Positions 2,353-53,407 of a stretch of 64,000 bases of DNA are shown here, one piece after another; the stretch's first letter is position 1; every line of letters starts with the position of its first letter. The position numbers and the translations under genes were made by a program. Origin of the DNA: Rhodospirillales bacterium (GTDB lineage Bacteria > Pseudomonadota > Alphaproteobacteria > Micavibrionales > Micavibrionaceae); assembly GCA_020638395.1 (NCBI GenBank), contig JACKIP010000009.1, positions 1,462 to 65,461 of the forward strand, given 5' to 3'. The notes under the pieces were generated by a model. The model worked only from the letters and a program-made list of their open reading frames with translations. It was not told the DNA's origin and made no database searches.

Positions 2353-2412
2353 CAAATAGAGGAAGATAACAGTTACAGGCTTCAAGAAGACTGCTATATA
2401 AGGAGGGTGAAA

Positions 2413-3201
2413 ATGCGTAACAGGGCCTCCGTGAATATTTTTCGTACCGATCTTTCGTCTCATATGACCTCATATGATCTGCTGAAAACCTTTGCGATTA
2501 TTCTGATGGTGATCGACCATCTGGGGTTTTTCTTTTTTCCTCACATTGAGGAACTGCGTCTCATCGGGCGGCTCTCTGCACCGATCTGGTTTTTTCTGAT
2601 CGGATATGCCAGGACGCGCAAGCTGGAGCTGCGCCTATGGATCTGGGGCGCGGTTTTGCTGTTTGGCGGGATGTGGATTCGGCAGGGGCACGGGTTTTTG
2701 CCGTTAAATATTCTGTTTGATTTTTTGTTGATCCGCGCCATCCTTGAGGTGGTGATGGCCCGTGCGGTGCGGAATTTCGAAACCTTATTTGGCATGTTCT
2801 GGCTGTTTGCTTTATTGGCCTTGCCGAGTATTTTCTTTCTGGAATATGGAACCTTTGGGGTTCTGTTTGCGATGATGGGATATCTGGCGCGCAACCGCGC
2901 AAACATTCCAACCCTGTCTTCCAAAGATATCAGGATTTTTATCCTTTTAACCACGCTCGCCTATGCGTTGGGCATGTGGCACGAATTCCGCTTCGAGACA
3001 GTAAATGCCGGGTTGATGACGGTTTTGCTGCTGTGTCAAAGCTTTTTACTGTTCTCCTTCAAGCCGGCCGACCTTCCGGTCAAAAACCCGATTGCGAGGC
3101 TGTTGAAATATCCGCTCTTCCTGACCGGCCGCCGGACACTGGAAATTTATGTCGTTCACCTGCTTATTTTTATGTATGTTAAAGCTTATGGCGTTTTTTG
3201 A
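2413..3201 (+). CDS. TraX-family polytopic membrane protein (pilin-acetylase family), paralog 1
   Basis: DLLKTFAIILMVIDHLGFFF matches the TraX signature D(I/L)(I/L)KTxAxxLMVxDH; multiple hydrophobic spans; track start 2407 is GTG, ATG at 2413 has an AGGAGG SD 6 nt upstream; paralogous to 4334-5080. Confidence 0.7.
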   Translation: MRNRASVNIFRTDLSSHMTSYDLLKTFAIILMVIDHLGFFFFPHIEELRLIGRLSAPIWFFLIGYARTRKLELRLWIWGAVLLFGGMWIRQGHGFLPLNILFDFLLIRAILEVVMARAVRNFETLFGMFWLFALLALPSIFFLEYGTFGVLFAMMGYLARNRANIPTLSSKDIRIFILLTTLAYALGMWHEFRFETVNAGLMTVLLLCQSFLLFSFKPADLPVKNPIARLLKYPLFLTGRRTLEIYVVHLLIFMYVKAYGVF

Positions 3202-3207
3202 ATTATT

Positions 3208-3338
3208 GAAGCCTCTGCAAAAGTCCAGAATCGTCATCCTGAGCCGCAGGAGAAGGATTTGGAATTATTGAAAAAGAAGATTCTTCGCTATGCTCAGAAT
3301 GACGGTTTTGTAAAATTGCAACCTTTTGCAGGGGCTTC
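3208..3338. repeat. ~120-bp nested-palindrome intergenic repeat (MITE/RPE-like), copy A
   Basis: Core cGTCATCCTGAGC...GAAGGAT...ATTCTTCGCT..GCTCAGAATGACGg with outer flank gaagcctctgcaaaag/cttttgcaggggcttc; alignable by eye to 23176-23280 (same orientation) and 29852-29972 (inverted); sits between convergent TraX and methyltransferase genes. Confidence 0.7.
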
Positions 3339-4270
3339 TATAGAGGTTTTTTCAAAATTGCGACGCAGGAAATATCCAGATTCAAGCGCTTCGCTTTTTC
3401 CAGACTAATCCCTGTTGCTGGAAATTCGTGAAATTCTTCTATTTCAAAGCCTTTGTTCAAGTACAAATTTTTTACCTCTTCCGGTGATCTCCAGAGAAAG
3501 ATGTGATCCGGAGCCGGGCTATTGACGGGGACGTTTATAAAAGCTCGCCCACCGGGTTTAAGGATCTTATAAATATGTTCAAGTCCTTTTTCAGGGTTTT
3601 CCGTGTGTTCCAGAACTTCGCTACAAATGACACTGTCATACTTGTTTCTTATACCGCTATCTTCCAGAACATCCTGTTCTCTCACATTAATATTTTCCGT
3701 GATGCCCATAGTTTTTAATGACTGTTTGGTCGCGGCCAGACTGGTTGCACTGATATCCCATGCTTCGAGTGCGCCATGACGGTCAGTTAGTGCGGCCAAT
3801 AACAGAAATAAGCCATGACCAGGACCAATATCCAGATGTTGGTAATTATCTGGGTTCATGTGCAAAAATTTAATTGAATATAAACAAAACGCTTTTGCAT
3901 GATTGGGCCAGAAAAATTGAGACATTAGTATGCCATGTACATATTTTCCCATATATTGAGGGTCATCATACACTTTTTCCTTTGCTTCCTGAATGGTGTT
4001 TAAACGGTAGGAATGATGTCTATGGAAATAAAGTTGTTCCTCTTGGAAACGCTCACACATCCATCGGTAATCTGCGAGATAGGATTTAAGGTTGTCTTTT
4101 ATTATTTTTACCGCAAACAGTGCAATTTTTTCTAGTTCCTTAATTTCTTCGTCGGATAATTGTGTGTATCCACGCCGTAGGGCCGTTTCATGTTCTGGCC
4201 ATATTTGAAGCAGATCTGTTGAAAAAGCGCTCAATTGGGGGAAACTCTTTAGAGTATCGATTTTAGTCAT
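3338..4270 (-). CDS. class I SAM-dependent methyltransferase with ~140-aa N-terminal extension
   Basis: Motif I LDIGPGHG, acidic post-I EAWDIS, VLEHTENPEKGLEHIYKILKPGGRAF motif; visibly AT-richer than surrounding housekeeping genes. Confidence 0.8.
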   Translation of the reverse strand: MTKIDTLKSFPQLSAFSTDLLQIWPEHETALRRGYTQLSDEEIKELEKIALFAVKIIKDNLKSYLADYRWMCERFQEEQLYFHRHHSYRLNTIQEAKEKVYDDPQYMGKYVHGILMSQFFWPNHAKAFCLYSIKFLHMNPDNYQHLDIGPGHGLFLLLAALTDRHGALEAWDISATSLAATKQSLKTMGITENINVREQDVLEDSGIRNKYDSVICSEVLEHTENPEKGLEHIYKILKPGGRAFINVPVNSPAPDHIFLWRSPEEVKNLYLNKGFEIEEFHEFPATGISLEKAKRLNLDISCVAILKKPL

Positions 4271-4333
4271 GATATGTAATCTCTGTATTTAAAAAATTAT
4301 ACGGTATTTATCCGGATAGTATATAAACTAAAT

Positions 4334-5080
4334 ATGTACCATAATCTAACAGCTTATACACTTTTGGCAATAACGGTTGTCTCTATGGTTGCGGGGCATG
4401 TGTTTTATTATTTCTATCCAGACGCTCTGTGGTTGCGGATACCGGATAGAATCCTGGTGCCTACTTTTCTTGTACTGATTGGTTATAATGTTGGGCGAAA
4501 ATCTGATTTTTTGATGTGGTTTGGTGCTATTGTCGTCATGGGGACGCACCTTCTCTTGTATCATGATATATGGATAAATGTTCTGGGTACATTTATCCTG
4601 GTGAGGGCCTTGATTGATCCGATAATGTATCTATTGTTACGAAGCAAATTCTGGTTTTGGTTCTTTAGTATTCTTTTCGTGGTGTTGTCGCCTGTCGCCA
4701 ATCATTTTTTTGAATATGGGACGATTGCTTTCACAATGGCAATGGCAGGTTGGATCAACAGAAATAGAGATGAAGCCAAGCATATTGTTGATCCTGACCA
4801 CTATTTTATTTTTGCGACAATTGGTTATATCTTTTTTACACAGGTGGTTTTTCATTTTTCTCAGCTGGAGTTAATGATTATTATCACCGGGACCGCCGTG
4901 ACAATGATTCTTTTGTATGATTTTAGAACACTTTTGATGAATTCTATTCGTCGGCGCCCTCGCGATCTGATTGAAAAAACCGTTAGTTTTATAGGACGAA
5001 AAAGTTTAGAAATATATGTGATCCATGTTGTTTTGTTCGAAATGATTCTTTATGCTGCTCTCCATAGAAGTTTGGGATAA
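4334..5080 (+). CDS. TraX-family polytopic membrane protein, paralog 2
   Basis: Collinear similarity to 2413-3201 (RxxxPxFLxLIGYxxxRK; FEYGTxxFxMxMxGxxxRNR; GR(K/R)(S/T)LEIYV(I/V)H(V/L)); highly hydrophobic; AT-rich. Confidence 0.7.
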   Translation: MYHNLTAYTLLAITVVSMVAGHVFYYFYPDALWLRIPDRILVPTFLVLIGYNVGRKSDFLMWFGAIVVMGTHLLLYHDIWINVLGTFILVRALIDPIMYLLLRSKFWFWFFSILFVVLSPVANHFFEYGTIAFTMAMAGWINRNRDEAKHIVDPDHYFIFATIGYIFFTQVVFHFSQLELMIIITGTAVTMILLYDFRTLLMNSIRRRPRDLIEKTVSFIGRKSLEIYVIHVVLFEMILYAALHRSLG

Positions 5081-5096
5081 TGGATGAGGAGAGGTT

Positions 5097-5330
5097 ATGT
5101 CAGATAAACTCATTGCGCTTTTTGCGGATATTTTAGAGATTTCGGAGGATATGCTTAATGATGAGACATCCCCCAAGAATACGTGGCAATGGGATAGCTT
5201 GACGGCTATGCACTTGATTGCCGCTATCGAGACGACATTTGACGTTCGGTTATCAACTAAGGAAATTGTCAGTATGGACAGCATCGCCAAGGTTCGTGCT
5301 GTGCTGCAGGGAAAAAATATTGATATCTAA
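5097..5330 (+). CDS. acyl carrier protein (stand-alone, FkbJ-like)
   Basis: 77 aa, acidic, phosphopantetheine attachment motif WDSLTAMHLIAAIE (DSL); SD GAGGAGAGG; 18 nt upstream of the FkbH-like gene. Confidence 0.75.
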   Translation: MSDKLIALFADILEISEDMLNDETSPKNTWQWDSLTAMHLIAAIETTFDVRLSTKEIVSMDSIAKVRAVLQGKNIDI

Positions 5331-5347
5331 AAAATCTGGATTCGTAC

Positions 5348-7009
5348 ATGGTTGAAGATGCTGGTTTCAGAATTGGGATTTCAGCCAGTGTAACGGGGGA
5401 TCCTCTGGTTCCTCATCTGCAAAAATATCTGGCTCGGAGGGGTATGAAATCTTCTGGTGTTCAGGTAGCCCCGTTTAACCAGATTCATCAGGTTTGCAGG
5501 CAGCACGAACAAGTGTTTGGCGGTTCCCCGGATATTATTTTTTTATCTTGGAGATTGGAAGACCTTCTGGGGTCTCCTTTATCTGATTGGGAGAAAATTC
5601 ATAAGGTACTGGGCGATTTGGCGGAGTCCGTATCTATTTTACGTCAAAATTTTTCTGGTACGCTCATTGTAACGCTTCCGGCCTGTCCTGTTGATTTTTC
5701 AAACGATCTTCTTTCTGTTACGCCTAATCCTGCATCTGTTTCTGTCGATCATCTTCGAGTGTTCTGGCTGGGCTTGTTAGAGAATAGGGGGAGTATTCAT
5801 CATCTTGATACGCATTCAATTTTACTCAAGATCGGACAGGATCAGGCTTATGACGCCCGGAAATGGTATCTTTATCGGCAACCCTGGAGTGAGCGTTTTT
5901 GGGAGCTTTTGGCCAGACAAGTCGGACGTATCATTTGTCTGCAAACATTACCCGCAAAGAAATGCATTGTTCTGGATGCGGATAATACGTTGTGGGGAGG
6001 GGTTGTTGGAGAAGACGGGTTGTCAGGCATTCATCTAGGGAATGATTTCCCTGGAAGGGTATACAAAGATTTTCAGAAATCTTTATCATTTCTTCAAAAA
6101 AAAGGTATTTTGTTAGCGATAGCCAGCAAGAATAATGAAGCTGATTTTTTTAGTGTACTGGATCAGCATGATGAAATGCTTCTCAAGCGAGAGGATTTTG
6201 TCGCTTTTGAGGTGCATTGGAACTCAAAAGTTGAAAGCCTTAAGAATATTGCCAAAAAATTAAACATTGGTCTTGATTCAATTGTGTTTATTGATGATTC
6301 AGGTAAAGAGATTGGTGAGGTAAAGGAACGGTTGCCAATGGTAACGTGTTTGCAGGTCCCTGAAGAAATTACGGATCTTCCGACTTTTTTACAAACAGAA
6401 GATATATTTGATATGGAAAGTATTACGGAGGAAGATCTTTTGCGGACAAGTCGTATACAGGCAACGGAGCAACGGCAACGCCTTCAGGAGGTTTTGTCCG
6501 AAGATGATTATAAATTGTCGCTTAATTTACAGATGTCTGTATTTCAGATGCAGGATCAGCATGTGCAGCGCATTGTGCAATTAATTAATAAAACGAACCA
6601 ATTCAATCTGACAACTATACGGCGCTCTCAGGAAGAAATTCAAGCTTTGGTCGCCTCTGGAAAGTATATTATTGTAGGGATGACTCTTGAGGATAAGTAT
6701 GGCGACTATGGGTTGGTGGGAGTTGCAATTGTTAAAAAAGAACACAATATCGGCATCATCGATACTTTTTTGATGAGTTGTCGGGTTTTGGGCCGAGATG
6801 CAGAAGTTGCCTTTTTAACGGCATTGGCAAATATCTCTCAGACTTACGGGTGCGAGTTTCTGCGTGGATACTATGTACGGACACTTAAAAATGAGATGGT
6901 TTCCAATTTCTATCAAAAACAGGGGTTTTCTTCTGTTGGTGATTTCTGGCAGGCTTCTTGTGAGGATATTAAGGCATTACAGCACATTGTTGACGTTAAA
7001 ATCATTTAG
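5348..7009 (+). CDS. FkbH-like protein: HAD-IIIC phosphatase domain plus C-terminal GNAT-like acyltransferase domain (putative glyceryl-ACP forming enzyme)
   Basis: HAD motif I VLDADNTLWGGVVGEDG, motif III LAIASKNNE, motif IV FIDDS; C-terminal ~220 aa acyltransferase-like (IIVGMTLEDKYGDYGLVGVAIV...CRVLGRDAE); family pairing with a preceding dedicated ACP as in FkbH/FkbJ. Confidence 0.75.
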   Translation: MVEDAGFRIGISASVTGDPLVPHLQKYLARRGMKSSGVQVAPFNQIHQVCRQHEQVFGGSPDIIFLSWRLEDLLGSPLSDWEKIHKVLGDLAESVSILRQNFSGTLIVTLPACPVDFSNDLLSVTPNPASVSVDHLRVFWLGLLENRGSIHHLDTHSILLKIGQDQAYDARKWYLYRQPWSERFWELLARQVGRIICLQTLPAKKCIVLDADNTLWGGVVGEDGLSGIHLGNDFPGRVYKDFQKSLSFLQKKGILLAIASKNNEADFFSVLDQHDEMLLKREDFVAFEVHWNSKVESLKNIAKKLNIGLDSIVFIDDSGKEIGEVKERLPMVTCLQVPEEITDLPTFLQTEDIFDMESITEEDLLRTSRIQATEQRQRLQEVLSEDDYKLSLNLQMSVFQMQDQHVQRIVQLINKTNQFNLTTIRRSQEEIQALVASGKYIIVGMTLEDKYGDYGLVGVAIVKKEHNIGIIDTFLMSCRVLGRDAEVAFLTALANISQTYGCEFLRGYYVRTLKNEMVSNFYQKQGFSSVGDFWQASCEDIKALQHIVDVKII

Positions 7010-8888: not shown

Positions 8889-8921
8889 CCGTCATTACAC
8901 GCACAAGGCGTGTGATGACGG
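8889..8921. repeat. REP-like hairpin, copy 1 (ccgtcatTACACGCacaagGCGTGTGAtgacgg)
   Basis: Near-perfect 14-bp stem with 5-nt loop; same CACACGC-ACAAG-GCGTGTG core at 23330-23360 and 27187-27217; intergenic. Confidence 0.65.
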
Positions 8922-14671: not shown

Positions 14672-14715
14672 TGTCATCCCGAGGGAAGTCTGCGCAGCAG
14701 ACGGCGAGGGATGAC
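14672..14715. repeat. short hairpin element related to the nested-palindrome repeat (tGTCATCCCGAGGG...CGAGGGATGACa)
   Basis: Termini GTCATCC(C/T)GAG / CGAGGGATGAC resemble the outer stem of the 120-bp repeat; lies between ffh 3' end and rpsP 5' end. Confidence 0.5.
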
Positions 14716-14756
14716 AGTATTGAGGGCTGTAGTTTTTCCTTTCCTACTTCAACTCG

Positions 14757-21927: not shown

Positions 21928-23175
21928 ATGACCGACATTCTTGTACCCACCCTTGGCGAGTCCGTAAGTGAAGCAATTATTGCCAGATGGCTGAAAAAGG
22001 AAGGGGAGTCTGTTGCGGCAGATGAAGCGATTGTGGAGCTGGAAACAGATAAGGTAACTCTGGAAGTCAATGCCCCGGAAGCCGGGGTCATCCGTAAGAT
22101 CATCGCCGGGGAAGGGGCCACGGTTGAGGTCGGAGCGGTTCTTGGTCAGATGGAGGCGGGCGGTTCTGCTGCGGCATCTTCTAAATCTGCTGCAGCAGCA
22201 ACGGCGGCGCAACCTGAGAAAACAGCTGCTTCTCCTGCAACAACGGAAGGAGATGACCAGAAGTTATCTCCGGCTGTGCGCAAAATGATCGAAGATAACA
22301 AGCTTGATGCTGCGCTGATATCCGGTACGGGGAAAGATGGCCGGATTATCAAGGAAGACGTTTTGAATTTTATGGAGAGCGGTAAGGGTGCAGCAAAACC
22401 ATCTGCTGCGGCTCCCGCGCCTGCAGCAGCACCGGCACCGGTAACATTGTCCGGCCCGTCCCGCGAGGTTGCGGCCCGTGAAGAAAAAGTGCCGATGACG
22501 AAATTGCGGCAGACGATCGCCAATCGTCTGAAGCAGGCGCAAACAACGGCGGCGATCCTGACAACCTTTAACGAGGTCGATATGACCAATGTTATGGCGT
22601 TGCGCAATGAGTATAAGGAGCAGTTTGAAAAGAAACACGGAGTCAAGCTGGGCTTTATGTCTTTCTTCGTCAAAGCTGTGATTAACGCTTTGCGGGAGTT
22701 TCCGGCTGTGAATGCGGAGATCAGCGGCACGGACATTATTTACAAAAATTATTACAACATCGGGGTTGCGGTCAGCACGCCGCAGGGCTTGATTGTGCCG
22801 GTGGTGCGGGATGCCGATCAGAAAAATTTTGCACAAATCGAGGCGGAAATTATTGATCTTGGCAGCCGGGCACGTGATGGACGGCTCTCCATGACCGAGA
22901 TGCAGGGAGGAACCTTTACCATTACAAATGGCGGAGTTTTTGGCTCCCTGATGTCCACGCCCATTCTGAATACGCCGCAATCGGCGATTTTGGGGATGCA
23001 CAAAATTCAGAAACGTCCGATGGTGATGCCTAATGGAGCGATTGAAGCGCGACCGATGATGTATCTGGCGCTGTCCTACGATCACCGGATGGTTGATGGT
23101 CGCGATTCTGTCTCTTTCCTGGTGCGCGTCAAGGAAGGAATCGAAGATCCGCAACGGTTGATGCTGGAAATCTGA
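21928..23175 (+). CDS. sucB: dihydrolipoyllysine-residue succinyltransferase (2-oxoglutarate dehydrogenase E2)
   Basis: Single lipoyl domain ([17 protein letters not shown]), Ala/Pro linker, E3-binding domain, catalytic DHRMVDGR. Confidence 0.85.
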
Positions 23176-23280
23176 TATAGAGCCTTCTGAAAAAGCCAGG
23201 ACTCGTCATCCTGAGCCATAGGCGAAGGATCTTAACGTTTGGAAACAAAAGATTCTTCGCTGCGCTCAGAATGACGGGGG
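23176..23280. repeat. ~120-bp nested-palindrome intergenic repeat, copy B
   Basis: tatagagccttctgaaaaagccaggactcGTCATCCTGAGCcataggcGAAGGATc...AGATTCTTCGCtgcGCTCAGAATGACGg, collinear with copy A; between convergent sucB and purQ. Confidence 0.7.
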
Positions 23281-23329
23281 AGTAAGAGAACTCTCTATCC
23301 TCTGCGTCTCTGCGGTTAAAAATCAATAT

Positions 23330-23360
23330 GGATCACACGCACAAGGCATGTGATGACGGC
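23330..23360. repeat. REP-like hairpin, copy 2 (ggatCACACGCacaagGCATGTGatgacgg)
   Basis: Same core as 8889-8921 with one stem mismatch; adjacent to repeat copy B. Confidence 0.6.
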
Positions 23361-23391
23361 CTGAAAGCTTGTCATTCTCGTAGGTTTCGGC

Positions 23392-27178: not shown

Positions 27179-27186
27179 CGTTTCGG

Positions 27187-27217
27187 TATCACACGCACAA
27201 GGGCGTGTAATGACGAA
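27187..27217. repeat. REP-like hairpin, copy 3 (tatCACACGCacaagGGCGTGTaatgacg)
   Basis: Same core as 8889-8921; begins 9 nt after the leuC stop. Confidence 0.6.
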
Positions 27218-29447: not shown

Positions 29448-29451
29448 TTTT

Positions 29452-29838
29452 CGGAAGATCGGATGGCTGCGGGGCTTTTGTTGCGTGTGTTTTGGGACTA
29501 TTCCCGGAGCAGGCGGATCAAGGCTTCGAGGAAAGTCCGGGCATCATGGAAACACGGCGCCGGGGAAATCCCGGATGGAGTAATCCACTGGACAGGGCCA
29601 CAGAAAAAATGTAGCTGGGAAAACAACCCCCAGTCATAATGAAAAGGTGCGGTAAGAGCGCACCGCGCGACCGGTAACGGAAGCGGCATGGTAACCCCCG
29701 CCGGATGCAAGATCAAATAGGGGCCGCACATGATGCGTTTTCACATCGTGGCCCGGGTCGATCGCTTGACGAATCTGGTAACAGATTGCGCAGATGAATA
29801 GCCATCCCCGACAGAACCCGGCTTACAGGTCTTCCGAA
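29452..29838 (+). ncRNA. rnpB: RNase P RNA (type A)
   Basis: Universally conserved segments present in order: GGAAAGTCCGGGC, GGTAAGAGCGCACCGCGC, GGTAAC, CAAG..AAATAGGGG, AGATGAATAG, GACAGAACCCGGCTTA; P1 pairing cggaagatc (5') with gtcttccg (3'); no coding ORF. Confidence 0.85.
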
Positions 29839-29851
29839 AATTTTTTTCCTG

Positions 29852-29972
29852 TATAGAAGCCTCTGCAAAAGGTTTATGCCTAATTTTACAAAACCGTCAT
29901 TCTGAGCGGAGCGAAGAATCTTTTGTTTCAATGGGTTAAGATCCTTCGCCTGCGGCTCAGGATGACGATTCT
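29852..29972. repeat. ~120-bp nested-palindrome intergenic repeat, copy C (inverted relative to A and B)
   Basis: tatagaagcctctgcaaaagg...aaaaCCGTCATTCTGAGCggagcGAAGAATCTtttg...AGATCCTTCgcctgcgGCTCAGGATGACGattct; reverse complement of copy A aligns over ~115 nt at roughly 80-85% identity by eye. Confidence 0.7.
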
Positions 29973-53331: not shown

Positions 53332-53407
53332 TGGTGGAGCCGAGCGGAATCGAACCGCCGACCTCTACAATGCCATTGTAGCGCTCTACCAATTGAGCTA
53401 CGGCCCC
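53332..53407 (-). tRNA. tRNA-Ala (anticodon GGC), CCA encoded
   Basis: Reverse complement GGGGCCGTAGCTCAATTGGTAGAGCGCTACAATGGCATTGTAGAGGTCGGCGGTTCGATTCCGCTCGGCTCCACCA folds as a cloverleaf; G3:U70 Ala identity pair; anticodon loop CTACA-AT-GGC-AT-TGTAG; the 65-aa ORF 53252-53449 over it is spurious. Confidence 0.85.

Follow-up and report, generated by a model that had tools for sequence, protein, structure and literature searches.

The nested palindromic repeats of a Rhodospirillales contig are most likely doublets of CGTC/TGTC-tagged REP units

A stretch of 64 kb from a Rhodospirillales bacterium (contig JACKIP010000009.1, positions 1,462 to 65,461), hereafter the window, carries three dispersed copies of a palindromic element, which we designate A, B and C. 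The element is most likely a doublet of repetitive extragenic palindromic (REP) units with CGTC or TGTC tags, nested within an outer palindrome, and belongs to an already known kind of repeat. What is conserved and selected is the single arm of the doublet, not the long hairpin, because the covariation of the stems falls within arms and not across them. In all, the window contains three doublets, one short single unit and three canonical REPs. Our preferred explanation, which we regard as probable, is that the doublet is a selfish repeat similar to a REPIN (REP doublet forming a hairpin) that folds as single-stranded DNA, with a possible secondary use of the hairpin at 3′ ends.

A preliminary description of this DNA had proposed a dispersed family of nested palindromes, of the small non-autonomous repeat type and present in both orientations, and our analysis supports this proposal; the family is real and was accurately described, but two of the inferences drawn from it, strand-specific RNA selection and lineage specificity, are wrong. 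The three copies lie where they had been reported, each with a core of 73 nt (A, 3232-3304, + strand; B, 23204-23276, +; C, 29895-29967, −). In each of them an arm with a C-type stem (ATCCT/AGGAT) is joined to an arm with a T-type stem (ATTCT/AGAAT), and their parts are arranged as follows:

3204..3223, + strand: left arm of the outer inverted repeat of copy A, TATTGAAGCCTCTGCAAAAG, 3 nt past the stop of a TraX-like open reading frame (ORF) at 2407-3201
3232..3259, + strand: left unit of copy A, CGTC-ATCCT-GAGCCGCAGGAGA-AGGAT-T, with a C-type stem and a C>A change that weakens the apical clamp
3279..3304, − strand: right unit of copy A, CGTC-ATTCT-GAGCATAGCGA-AGAAT-C, with a T-type stem and a degenerate triloop, ATA
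3323..3342, − strand: right arm of the outer inverted repeat of copy A, TATAGAAGCCCCTGCAAAAG, overlapping the stop of a methyltransferase ORF at 3338-4270 (−)
23176..23195, + strand: degenerate left outer repeat of copy B, TATAGAGCCTTCTGAAAAAG, immediately past the stop of sucB (21928-23175)
23204..23276, + strand: core doublet of copy B, with two units and a spacer of about 20 nt
23204-23231, + strand: left unit of copy B, CGTC-ATCCT-GAGCCATAGGCGA-AGGAT-C
23251-23276, − strand: right unit of copy B, CGTC-ATTCT-GAGCGCAGCGA-AGAAT-C
29852..29871, + strand: single outer repeat arm of copy C, TATAGAAGCCTCTGCAAAAG, 10 nt past the 3′ end of the RNase P RNA
29895..29967, − strand: core doublet of copy C, inverted with respect to A and B
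29940-29967, − strand: C-type unit of copy C, CGTC-ATCCT-GAGCCGCAGGCGA-AGGAT-C
29895-29920, + strand: T-type unit of copy C, CGTC-ATTCT-GAGCGGAGCGA-AGAAT-C

Pairwise alignments with a repeat finder showed 86% identity between A and C (over 99 nt), 90% between B and C (78 nt) and 77% between A and B (102 nt), with a core-to-core identity of 77-90% among the three 73-nt cores. The outer-stem word GTCATCCTGAGC occurs 13 times in the window with up to two mismatches, compared with 4.4 ± 1.8 times in shuffled sequences, and none of 100 shuffles reached 13. The collinear flank of about 20 nt attributed to the copies is also real: TATAGAAGCCTCTGCAAAAG appears three times in the window with up to three mismatches, with zero occurrences expected. 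This flank is the outer inverted repeat, which is two-sided in copy A and single-sided in B (left, degenerate) and in C. Copy A, the most decayed of the three, constitutes overall a nested palindrome of 139 nt (3204-3342). A census of the window that disregarded the tag recovered the six arms of the three copies and no further arm.

As had been noted, all copies in the window are intergenic, two of them in convergent gaps and one in a tandem gap. Copy A lies between the TraX-like gene (+) and the methyltransferase gene (−), copy B between sucB (+) and a purQ-like gene (−), and copy C downstream of the RNase P RNA and upstream of a GT4 glycosyltransferase gene. In the three cases, the sequence TATAGAAGCC...AAAAG begins at most 10 nt from the 3′ end of the + strand gene or RNA (the TraX-like ORF, sucB and the RNase P RNA, respectively).

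The consensus of the arms, [C/T]GTC-A-NNNN-GA-GCGNAGC-GA-N'N'N'N'-T-C (about 25-27 nt), comprises a [C/T]GTC tag, a 5-bp stem made of an A-T pair and four covarying pairs, two G.A mismatches and a GC-clamped GNA triloop. All six doublet arms of the window carry the CGTC tag, and their first two stem pairs are A-T and T-A. The first arm reads CGTC-ATCCT-GA-GCC-GCA-GGC-GA-AGGAT, with a 13-nt loop and one extra clamp pair, and the second, on the opposite strand, reads CGTC-ATTCT-GA-GC-GNA-GC-GA-AGAAT, with an 11-nt loop. Alternatively, the arms can be described as half-stems of 9 nt around a loop of 5 nt (C-type) or 3 nt (T-type), in which positions 6-7 are G.A/A.G mismatches. The three doublets are head-to-head heterodimers: the tags face outward, and about 20 nt separate the two units (21 nt in copy A).

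The covariation was evaluated in viral contigs scanned with GTCANNNNGAGCGNAGCGANNNNTC, with the N positions left free as a guard against pattern bias, from which we considered the 133 distinct arms among the matches listed. Of these, 118 are fully Watson-Crick at the four free pairs, whereas the mean over 2000 shuffles of the partners was 30.7 and the highest count 46; counted by pairs, 503 of 532 are Watson-Crick and eight are G-T. There are at least 11 complementary stem variants (TTCT/AGAA, TCCT/AGGA, TTCC/GGAA, TCCC/GGGA, TGCT/AGCA, TACT/AGTA, CCCT/AGGG, TTTC/GAAA, TGTT/AACA, CTCT/AGAG and CCCC/GGGG), the base preceding GTC is T in 110 arms and C in 18, and many arms are solo, without a partner. 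Likewise, among the 113 doublets listed from other genomes, the Y of GTCATYCTGAGC tracks the R of GAAGRATC within its own arm and not in the partner arm: the within-arm pair is Watson-Crick in 109 left arms and 112 right arms, while the same positions paired across arms yielded 19 C-A, 17 T-G, 15 A-C and 18 G-T combinations, that is, they are nearly independent. C/T heterodimers amount to 33 of these 113 doublets. We rejected a dimeric duplex-binding site as an alternative origin of the covariation within arms, given that a single element holds both stem variants and that no fewer than 11 complementary variants occur.

This arm-confined pairing also explains a C-A mismatch in the plus-strand stem that becomes a G-U pair on the opposite strand, which had been interpreted as a hint of selection for RNA folding in one orientation. 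The inner stem holds the reciprocal G-U/C-A combination, so that each strand has one mismatch and one wobble in the three copies, and the feature arises because a C-type arm is joined to a T-type arm, each of them self-compensated. In agreement, the folding energies of the RNAs from both strands are similar (−27 to −39 kcal/mol, with z-scores of −4 to −7.6 on either strand), so neither orientation is favored. Additionally, 15 solo units lie in the same direction as the neighboring genes and 16 in the opposite one, and this lack of orientation bias argues against a strand-specific role of the RNA.

Judging by its sequence, the unit is most likely a member or a variant of the superfamily of CGTC-tagged REPs, and we assign it to the superfamily rather than to any of the named families CGTC-1 to CGTC-4. 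According to the survey by Di Nocera, De Gregorio and Rocco (2013; PMC3733652), these REPs show a CGTC tag, or else TGTC/CCTC, a stem of 8-9 bp starting with A-T, T-A, a loop of 4-5 nt and, mostly, a CCA tail; they generally form head-head dimers, frequently heterodimers, whose tags face outward and whose spacers measure 20-100 bp. The survey situates them mostly in alphaproteobacteria, within a total of five phyla, and for the most part downstream of ORFs, in gaps where the ORFs are unidirectional or convergent; it describes many copies per genome and no dedicated transposase, and includes dimers nested within outer palindromes in H. neapolitanus and A. variabilis (PMC3733652). The elements from the window share with them the CGTC/TGTC tag, the A-T/T-A start of the stem and, in the left arms, the 9+5+9 geometry, as well as the organization in tags-outside heterodimers of partners unlike in stem and loop, with a spacer of about 20 nt and nested in an outer palindrome. 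They also coincide in their location after ORFs, the alphaproteobacterial host and the lack of a linked transposase, and canonical members of the class are present in the same window. Conversely, the window unit has a GNA triloop, and is found in at least 14 phyla plus phages, versus the five phyla published (PMC3733652).

The comparison with Rickettsia palindromic elements (RPEs) made in the preliminary description was apt, because RPE-4 and RPE-6 are filed among the CGTC-tagged REPs, where Neisseria dRS3 appears as CGTC-1 (PMC3733652), and because relatives of the unit are found in frame in genes. The likeness to RPEs considered here is one of kind: both are small palindromic repeats of alphaproteobacteria, and relatives of the unit occur in frame within genes, although no copy from the window is inside an ORF. 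The dRS3, Correia and enterobacterial repetitive intergenic consensus (ERIC) palindromes are similarly short, intergenic, hairpin-forming repeats that can be co-transcribed; however, Correia and ERIC elements are of 100-150 bp, with genus-restricted sequence and, for Correia, TA duplications, and we saw no sequence relation between them and the window element.

A scan of genome collections with two outer-stem words separated by a gap of 30-60 nt retrieved at least 120 loci. The sequence had been thought specific to this lineage, which holds for the spacer and the outer repeat, both restricted in distribution, and does not hold for the arms, which reach at least 14 phyla as well as phage contigs. 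The groups matched were Acidobacteriota, Chloroflexota, Bacteroidota, Ignavibacteria, Verrucomicrobiota, Planctomycetota, Gemmatimonadota, Armatimonadota, Nitrospirota, Cyanobacteriota, Bdellovibrionota, Desulfobacterota, Bacillota, Actinomycetota and Pseudomonadota, including Legionella. Units were frequent in phage contigs in the scan of viral contigs; blast comparisons of the elements gave no match against phage GenBank records and only a few cyanobacterial and Phocaeicola matches against plasmids.

The composite of the outer repeat and the head of the unit was found in only one contig in the metagenome scan (L247; Ga0206926_1108), as two direct copies 4 kb apart (approximate positions 35-95 and 4120-4168), flanking ordinary genes for LysM, GYF, CobW and WD40 products. 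This composite, consisting of (T)ACAG-GA(A/G)(G/A)CCTCTGCAAAAG followed, after about 18 nt, by TGTCATYCTGAGCGAAGGCGAG, is related to that from the window, so that at least one further lineage conserves the outer repeat and the unit head as a module. Searching proteins with the translation of the element yielded no additional copies. The best matches of SucB are 76-78% identical and the lower-ranked named ones are from Pelagibius, Kiloniellales and Rhodospirillales, as for a metagenome-assembled genome resembling alphaproteobacteria; the element was not found in about 57 kb of sequence from family-level relatives of the host. In relatives with a 77% identical SucB (L128, 11080-11148), a classic intrinsic terminator, AAAAAGCCCGC-TTTGAAA-GCGGGCTTTTT, comes after sucB and precedes ribosomal protein genes; in the window, the REP doublet, a CGTC REP and purQ come after this gene (23176-23391). 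Because the synteny downstream of sucB is not kept in the relatives, no orthologous empty site can be defined, and protein look-ups with S16, purQ and the methyltransferase matched assembly GCA_020638415.1 (contig JACKIR010000007.1) and retrieved no polymorphic strain. Exact look-ups of the sucB and GT4 proteins gave no match.

The flanks of the units are unrelated and their boundaries sharp, and the flank profile is conserved only in the T/C before GTC and the A/G after GAC. With crude ORF calls, the contexts of the units in the wider sample were 51 tandem, 28 convergent and 16 divergent, plus 15 inside ORFs. A clean indel of 33 nt with one unit distinguishes the related phage contigs L143 and L164, and there are further cases of presence or absence among related phages. 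In two near-identical phages (L176:11640-11880 and L222:2270-2560), homology on one side begins exactly at the CGTC tag of a shared unit, adjoined by an indel of about 75 nt, a comparison of sequences that suggests that units mark recombination or indel junctions.

Insertions in frame were found in relatives of the element and in none of the window copies, all of which lie outside ORFs; the RPE-like behavior mentioned in the preliminary description is seen in the relatives. Genes for the phage large terminase (TerL) hold in-frame inserts with the unit at two different positions, missing from close homologs: one is an insert of 42 amino acids with EMLRCAQHD (L142:12102-13742, −), missing from four homologs, and the other an insert with RSLASLGMT between the ATPase and nuclease domains (L192:739-2427, +, and L138:2768-4504, −). 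Likewise, the Planktothrix agardhii plasmid NZ_LR882964.1 (L252) contains nine variant units in positions 2363-6160, again as C-type plus T-type heterodimers. Several of them are in tandem within a coding sequence of 1560 amino acids, whose annotation is that of an MmeI-type restriction-modification enzyme, and their translations read VILSETKDLSGVVKD...SSQAQNDNN or ...VILSETKDL.... This gene adjoins the defense genes for a GIY-YIG nuclease and DISARM DrmA. Two Logan contigs from independent short-read assemblies of the same organism as the window, L250 (1310 nt) and L251 (3707 nt), stop at the core of the doublet or no more than about 20 nt from it, at sites B and A, respectively, as expected where repeated or palindromic sequence breaks de Bruijn graphs.

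In our proposal, two hairpin units of about 27 nt, placed head to head with their CGTC tags outermost and separated by a spacer of about 20 nt, make up the REP doublet, enclosed in the host lineage by the second, outer inverted repeat. Each unit would fold independently, most likely in single-stranded DNA such as that exposed where a replication fork opens the duplex, and a trans-acting enzyme encoded outside of the window would recognize the tag plus hairpin and copy or excise the repeat. The whole heterodimer is the form that is copied in the host genome, because the three copies have the same C-type arm, the same T-type arm and related spacers. Once transcribed, the 25-bp hairpin would probably act also, as a secondary effect, as a stabilizer of 3′ ends or as a terminator, because copies sit just past the 3′ ends of genes.

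Elements of a comparable organization are the REPINs and their RAYT (REP-associated tyrosine) transposases, reportedly described by Bertels and Rainey in 2011. As in the window, two inverted REPs and a spacer form a larger hairpin, and the doublet, not the single REP, behaves as the unit that is copied within a genome. However, REPINs are made of GTAG-type REPs tied to a single-copy RAYT gene (Y1 HUH) flanked by REPs, and are vertically inherited in narrow lineages, while the window element has a CGTC tag and a unit that crosses phyla, and no RAYT was found among the Pfam families listed or the proteins that recur near units.

Folding as DNA, rather than as RNA, is favored by the confinement of the covariation to the arm, the nearly exclusive Watson-Crick pairing of the stems, the apex and the lack of bias with respect to the transcribed strand; these four observations are pointers, none of them proof. 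The apex of every canonical unit is GCGNAGC, which is the sequence of the d(GCGNAGC) mini-hairpin of Hirao and co-workers; as DNA, this has a Tm of 76.5°C, with two G-C pairs and a sheared G-A pair, and is more stable than the RNA form (PMC13037366). The likeness is a match of sequence to a physical motif, which is not a genetic element, and the apex of the C-type arms from the window is longer by one pair (GCC-GCA-GGC).

Several results weigh against the proposal of a mobile, REPIN-like doublet of the CGTC class that folds as single-stranded DNA. Regarding its class, the window unit has five Watson-Crick pairs, two G.A mismatches and a GC clamp of 2-3 bp, and not the 8-9 clean pairs of CGTC REPs, and its unpaired tail is CTT in the window arms and TCTC in the wider family instead of the CCA customary in this class. 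As for mobility, the phage-to-phage indels could be deletions and not insertions, no direct repeat that could be a target-site duplication flanks any of the window copies, and the flank profile is random. The ORFs of the window are housekeeping genes, with no transposase among the Pfam families listed (25 of the 62 families matched, covering 45 ORFs), and the proteins that recur near units, after clustering 1130 ORFs from 2 Mb of loci, were only phage structural proteins and an ABC ATPase, with no transposase. Lastly, a nearest-neighbor DNA model assigned the unit −2.7 kcal/mol, no better than shuffled sequences, using parameters that have no term for the mini-hairpin.

A function at the level of RNA is the alternative that best survives, although we consider it unlikely. 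Here the long hairpin would be a bidirectional terminator, a possible role already suggested in the preliminary description, or a protector of the 3′ ends of mRNAs and of the RNase P RNA, and it would be repeated because of convergent use rather than mobility. The location of the three copies, 3-30 nt from the 3′ end of a + strand gene or RNA and in two cases between convergent genes, agrees with this, as do the strong folds obtained with either strand, the classic terminator that a relative has at the 3′ end of sucB, where the host has a doublet, and the predominance of tandem and convergent contexts over divergent ones in the wider sample (79 versus 16). Consensus scans for intrinsic terminators, whose loop limit excludes the long hairpin, found none at copies A or C, leaving gaps A and C with no other terminator-like site, and one on the − strand overlapping the left end of copy B. 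Past the hairpin there is a TTTT run in A (+) and C (−) and none in B (+); the run of copy C points away from any upstream gene. Nevertheless, it is the single arm that is conserved and covaries, solo units are oriented without bias relative to transcription, and G-T pairs are rare (8/532). Units also occur in divergent gaps and within ORFs, and one sequence of 25 nt is maintained across at least 14 phyla, unlike terminators.

A second alternative, which we find quite improbable, is that the unit is a DNA site for a protein of the host or of phages, such as a target for recombination or integration, a site for a nucleoid or replication protein, or a mini-hairpin priming signal. Neisseria dRS3 (CGTC-1) is such a target for a phage and IS110-type recombinase. 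A conserved loop on a covarying stem is the usual signature of a hairpin read by a protein, units are frequent in phage contigs, and the homology between L176 and L222 begins exactly at a unit, as at a recombination junction; furthermore, GCGNAGC-type mini-hairpins are found at phage G4 origins, ssiA and N4 promoters (PMC13037366). However, no recombinase, integrase or prophage end was seen beside the window copies, nor do these recur in 2 Mb of loci, and a protein site alone would leave unexplained why an identical heterodimer multiplied in one genome.

The reading of the element as a classical miniature inverted-repeat transposable element (MITE), in which the 25-nt arms would be terminal inverted repeats left by a decayed insertion sequence of the DDE type, whose transposase would mobilize the element, accounts for perfect inverted termini around a short variable middle at unrelated sites and in both orientations, yet is highly improbable given the many solo arms, a covariation inside the arm that is needless for a duplex bound by a transposase, the lack of target-site duplications at the window copies and in the flank profile, the lack of a longer arm-bounded element or a transposase in 2 Mb of loci, and an extension over at least 14 phyla that would be unprecedented for one MITE family. 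We know of no MITE family spanning at least 14 phyla. Separately, a reading of the outer repeat as a sigma-54 or sigma-70 promoter was dropped, as the spacings are unfit.

For the window itself, the elements are ordinary intergenic REP doublets of little import; they should be masked as repeats, and not annotated as genes or small RNAs, and they account for contig breaks. Their interest lies in the CGTC REP class, which has had no known mobilizing enzyme since 2013. The unit is now sharply defined by its tag, its 5-bp covarying stem, its tandem G.A mismatches and its GCGNAGC apex, and it is phage-borne, gained or lost between close relatives and able to sit in frame inside genes. This sharp definition, together with its carriage by phages, makes a search for the partner protein practical, and a hairpin unit that crosses phyla in phages may make the missing enzyme of the class findable. 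As a rather doubtful extension of our proposal, the unit [T/C]GTC-A-NNNN-GA-GCGNAGC-GA-N'N'N'N'-TC could be a pan-bacterial, phage-borne single-stranded DNA signal read by one widespread enzyme (an HUH nuclease, a primase-like protein or a recombinase) that would provide the mobilizing or processing activity missing from the CGTC class; the 25-nt unit may be previously undescribed as such a signal. The unit also explains the recurrent spurious peptides VILSEAKDL and ILRCAQNDK in metagenome gene calls, and in the searched literature the arm sequences and the derived peptides matched only unrelated primers and peptides.

Comparison of the window with Rfam 15 at the gathering threshold identified only a bacterial class A RNase P RNA (29451-29841, +; 282.6 bits) and one tRNA (53335-53407, −), with no family at the repeats. 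At E ≤ 10, copy A and a canonical doublet gave sub-threshold matches to generic hairpins (miRNA precursors) and to no bacterial family.

The short single unit and the three canonical REPs of the window are the following:

14672..14716, + strand: short element TGTC-ATCCC-GAG...GCGCAGC...CGA-GGGAT-GACA, a single variant unit between ffh and rpsP
8890..8920, + strand: canonical CGTC REP, CGTC-ATTACACGC-ACAAG-GCGTGTGAT-GACG, with a 9-bp stem, a 5-nt loop and tags on both sides
23329..23358, − strand: canonical CGTC REP, CGTC-ATCACATGC-CTTGT-GCGTGTGAT-CCA, with a CCA tail and about 55 nt from copy B
27185..27215, − strand: canonical CGTC REP, CGTC-ATTACACGC-CCTTGT-GCGTGTGAT-ACC

The 45-nt element had been taken for a derivative of the doublet that keeps only the termini of the outer stem. 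It is real and does have the termini TGTCATCC/GGATGACA, but it is not a doublet lacking its middle: it is a single unit with an expanded loop, because its 3′ half is ...CGA-GGGAT, of the same-arm type, and not ...GCTC-GGGAT as in a right arm. It carries the tag on both strands, its expanded loop ends again in a GCGNAGC mini-hairpin (GCGCAGC), and variants resembling it are found in contigs L173 and L181. The three canonical REPs follow the pattern CGTC-AT(T/C)ACA(C/T)GC-loop-GCGTGTGAT, with a stem of 9 bp and a loop of 5-6 nt, and belong to the same superfamily as the doublet arms while being a different unit.

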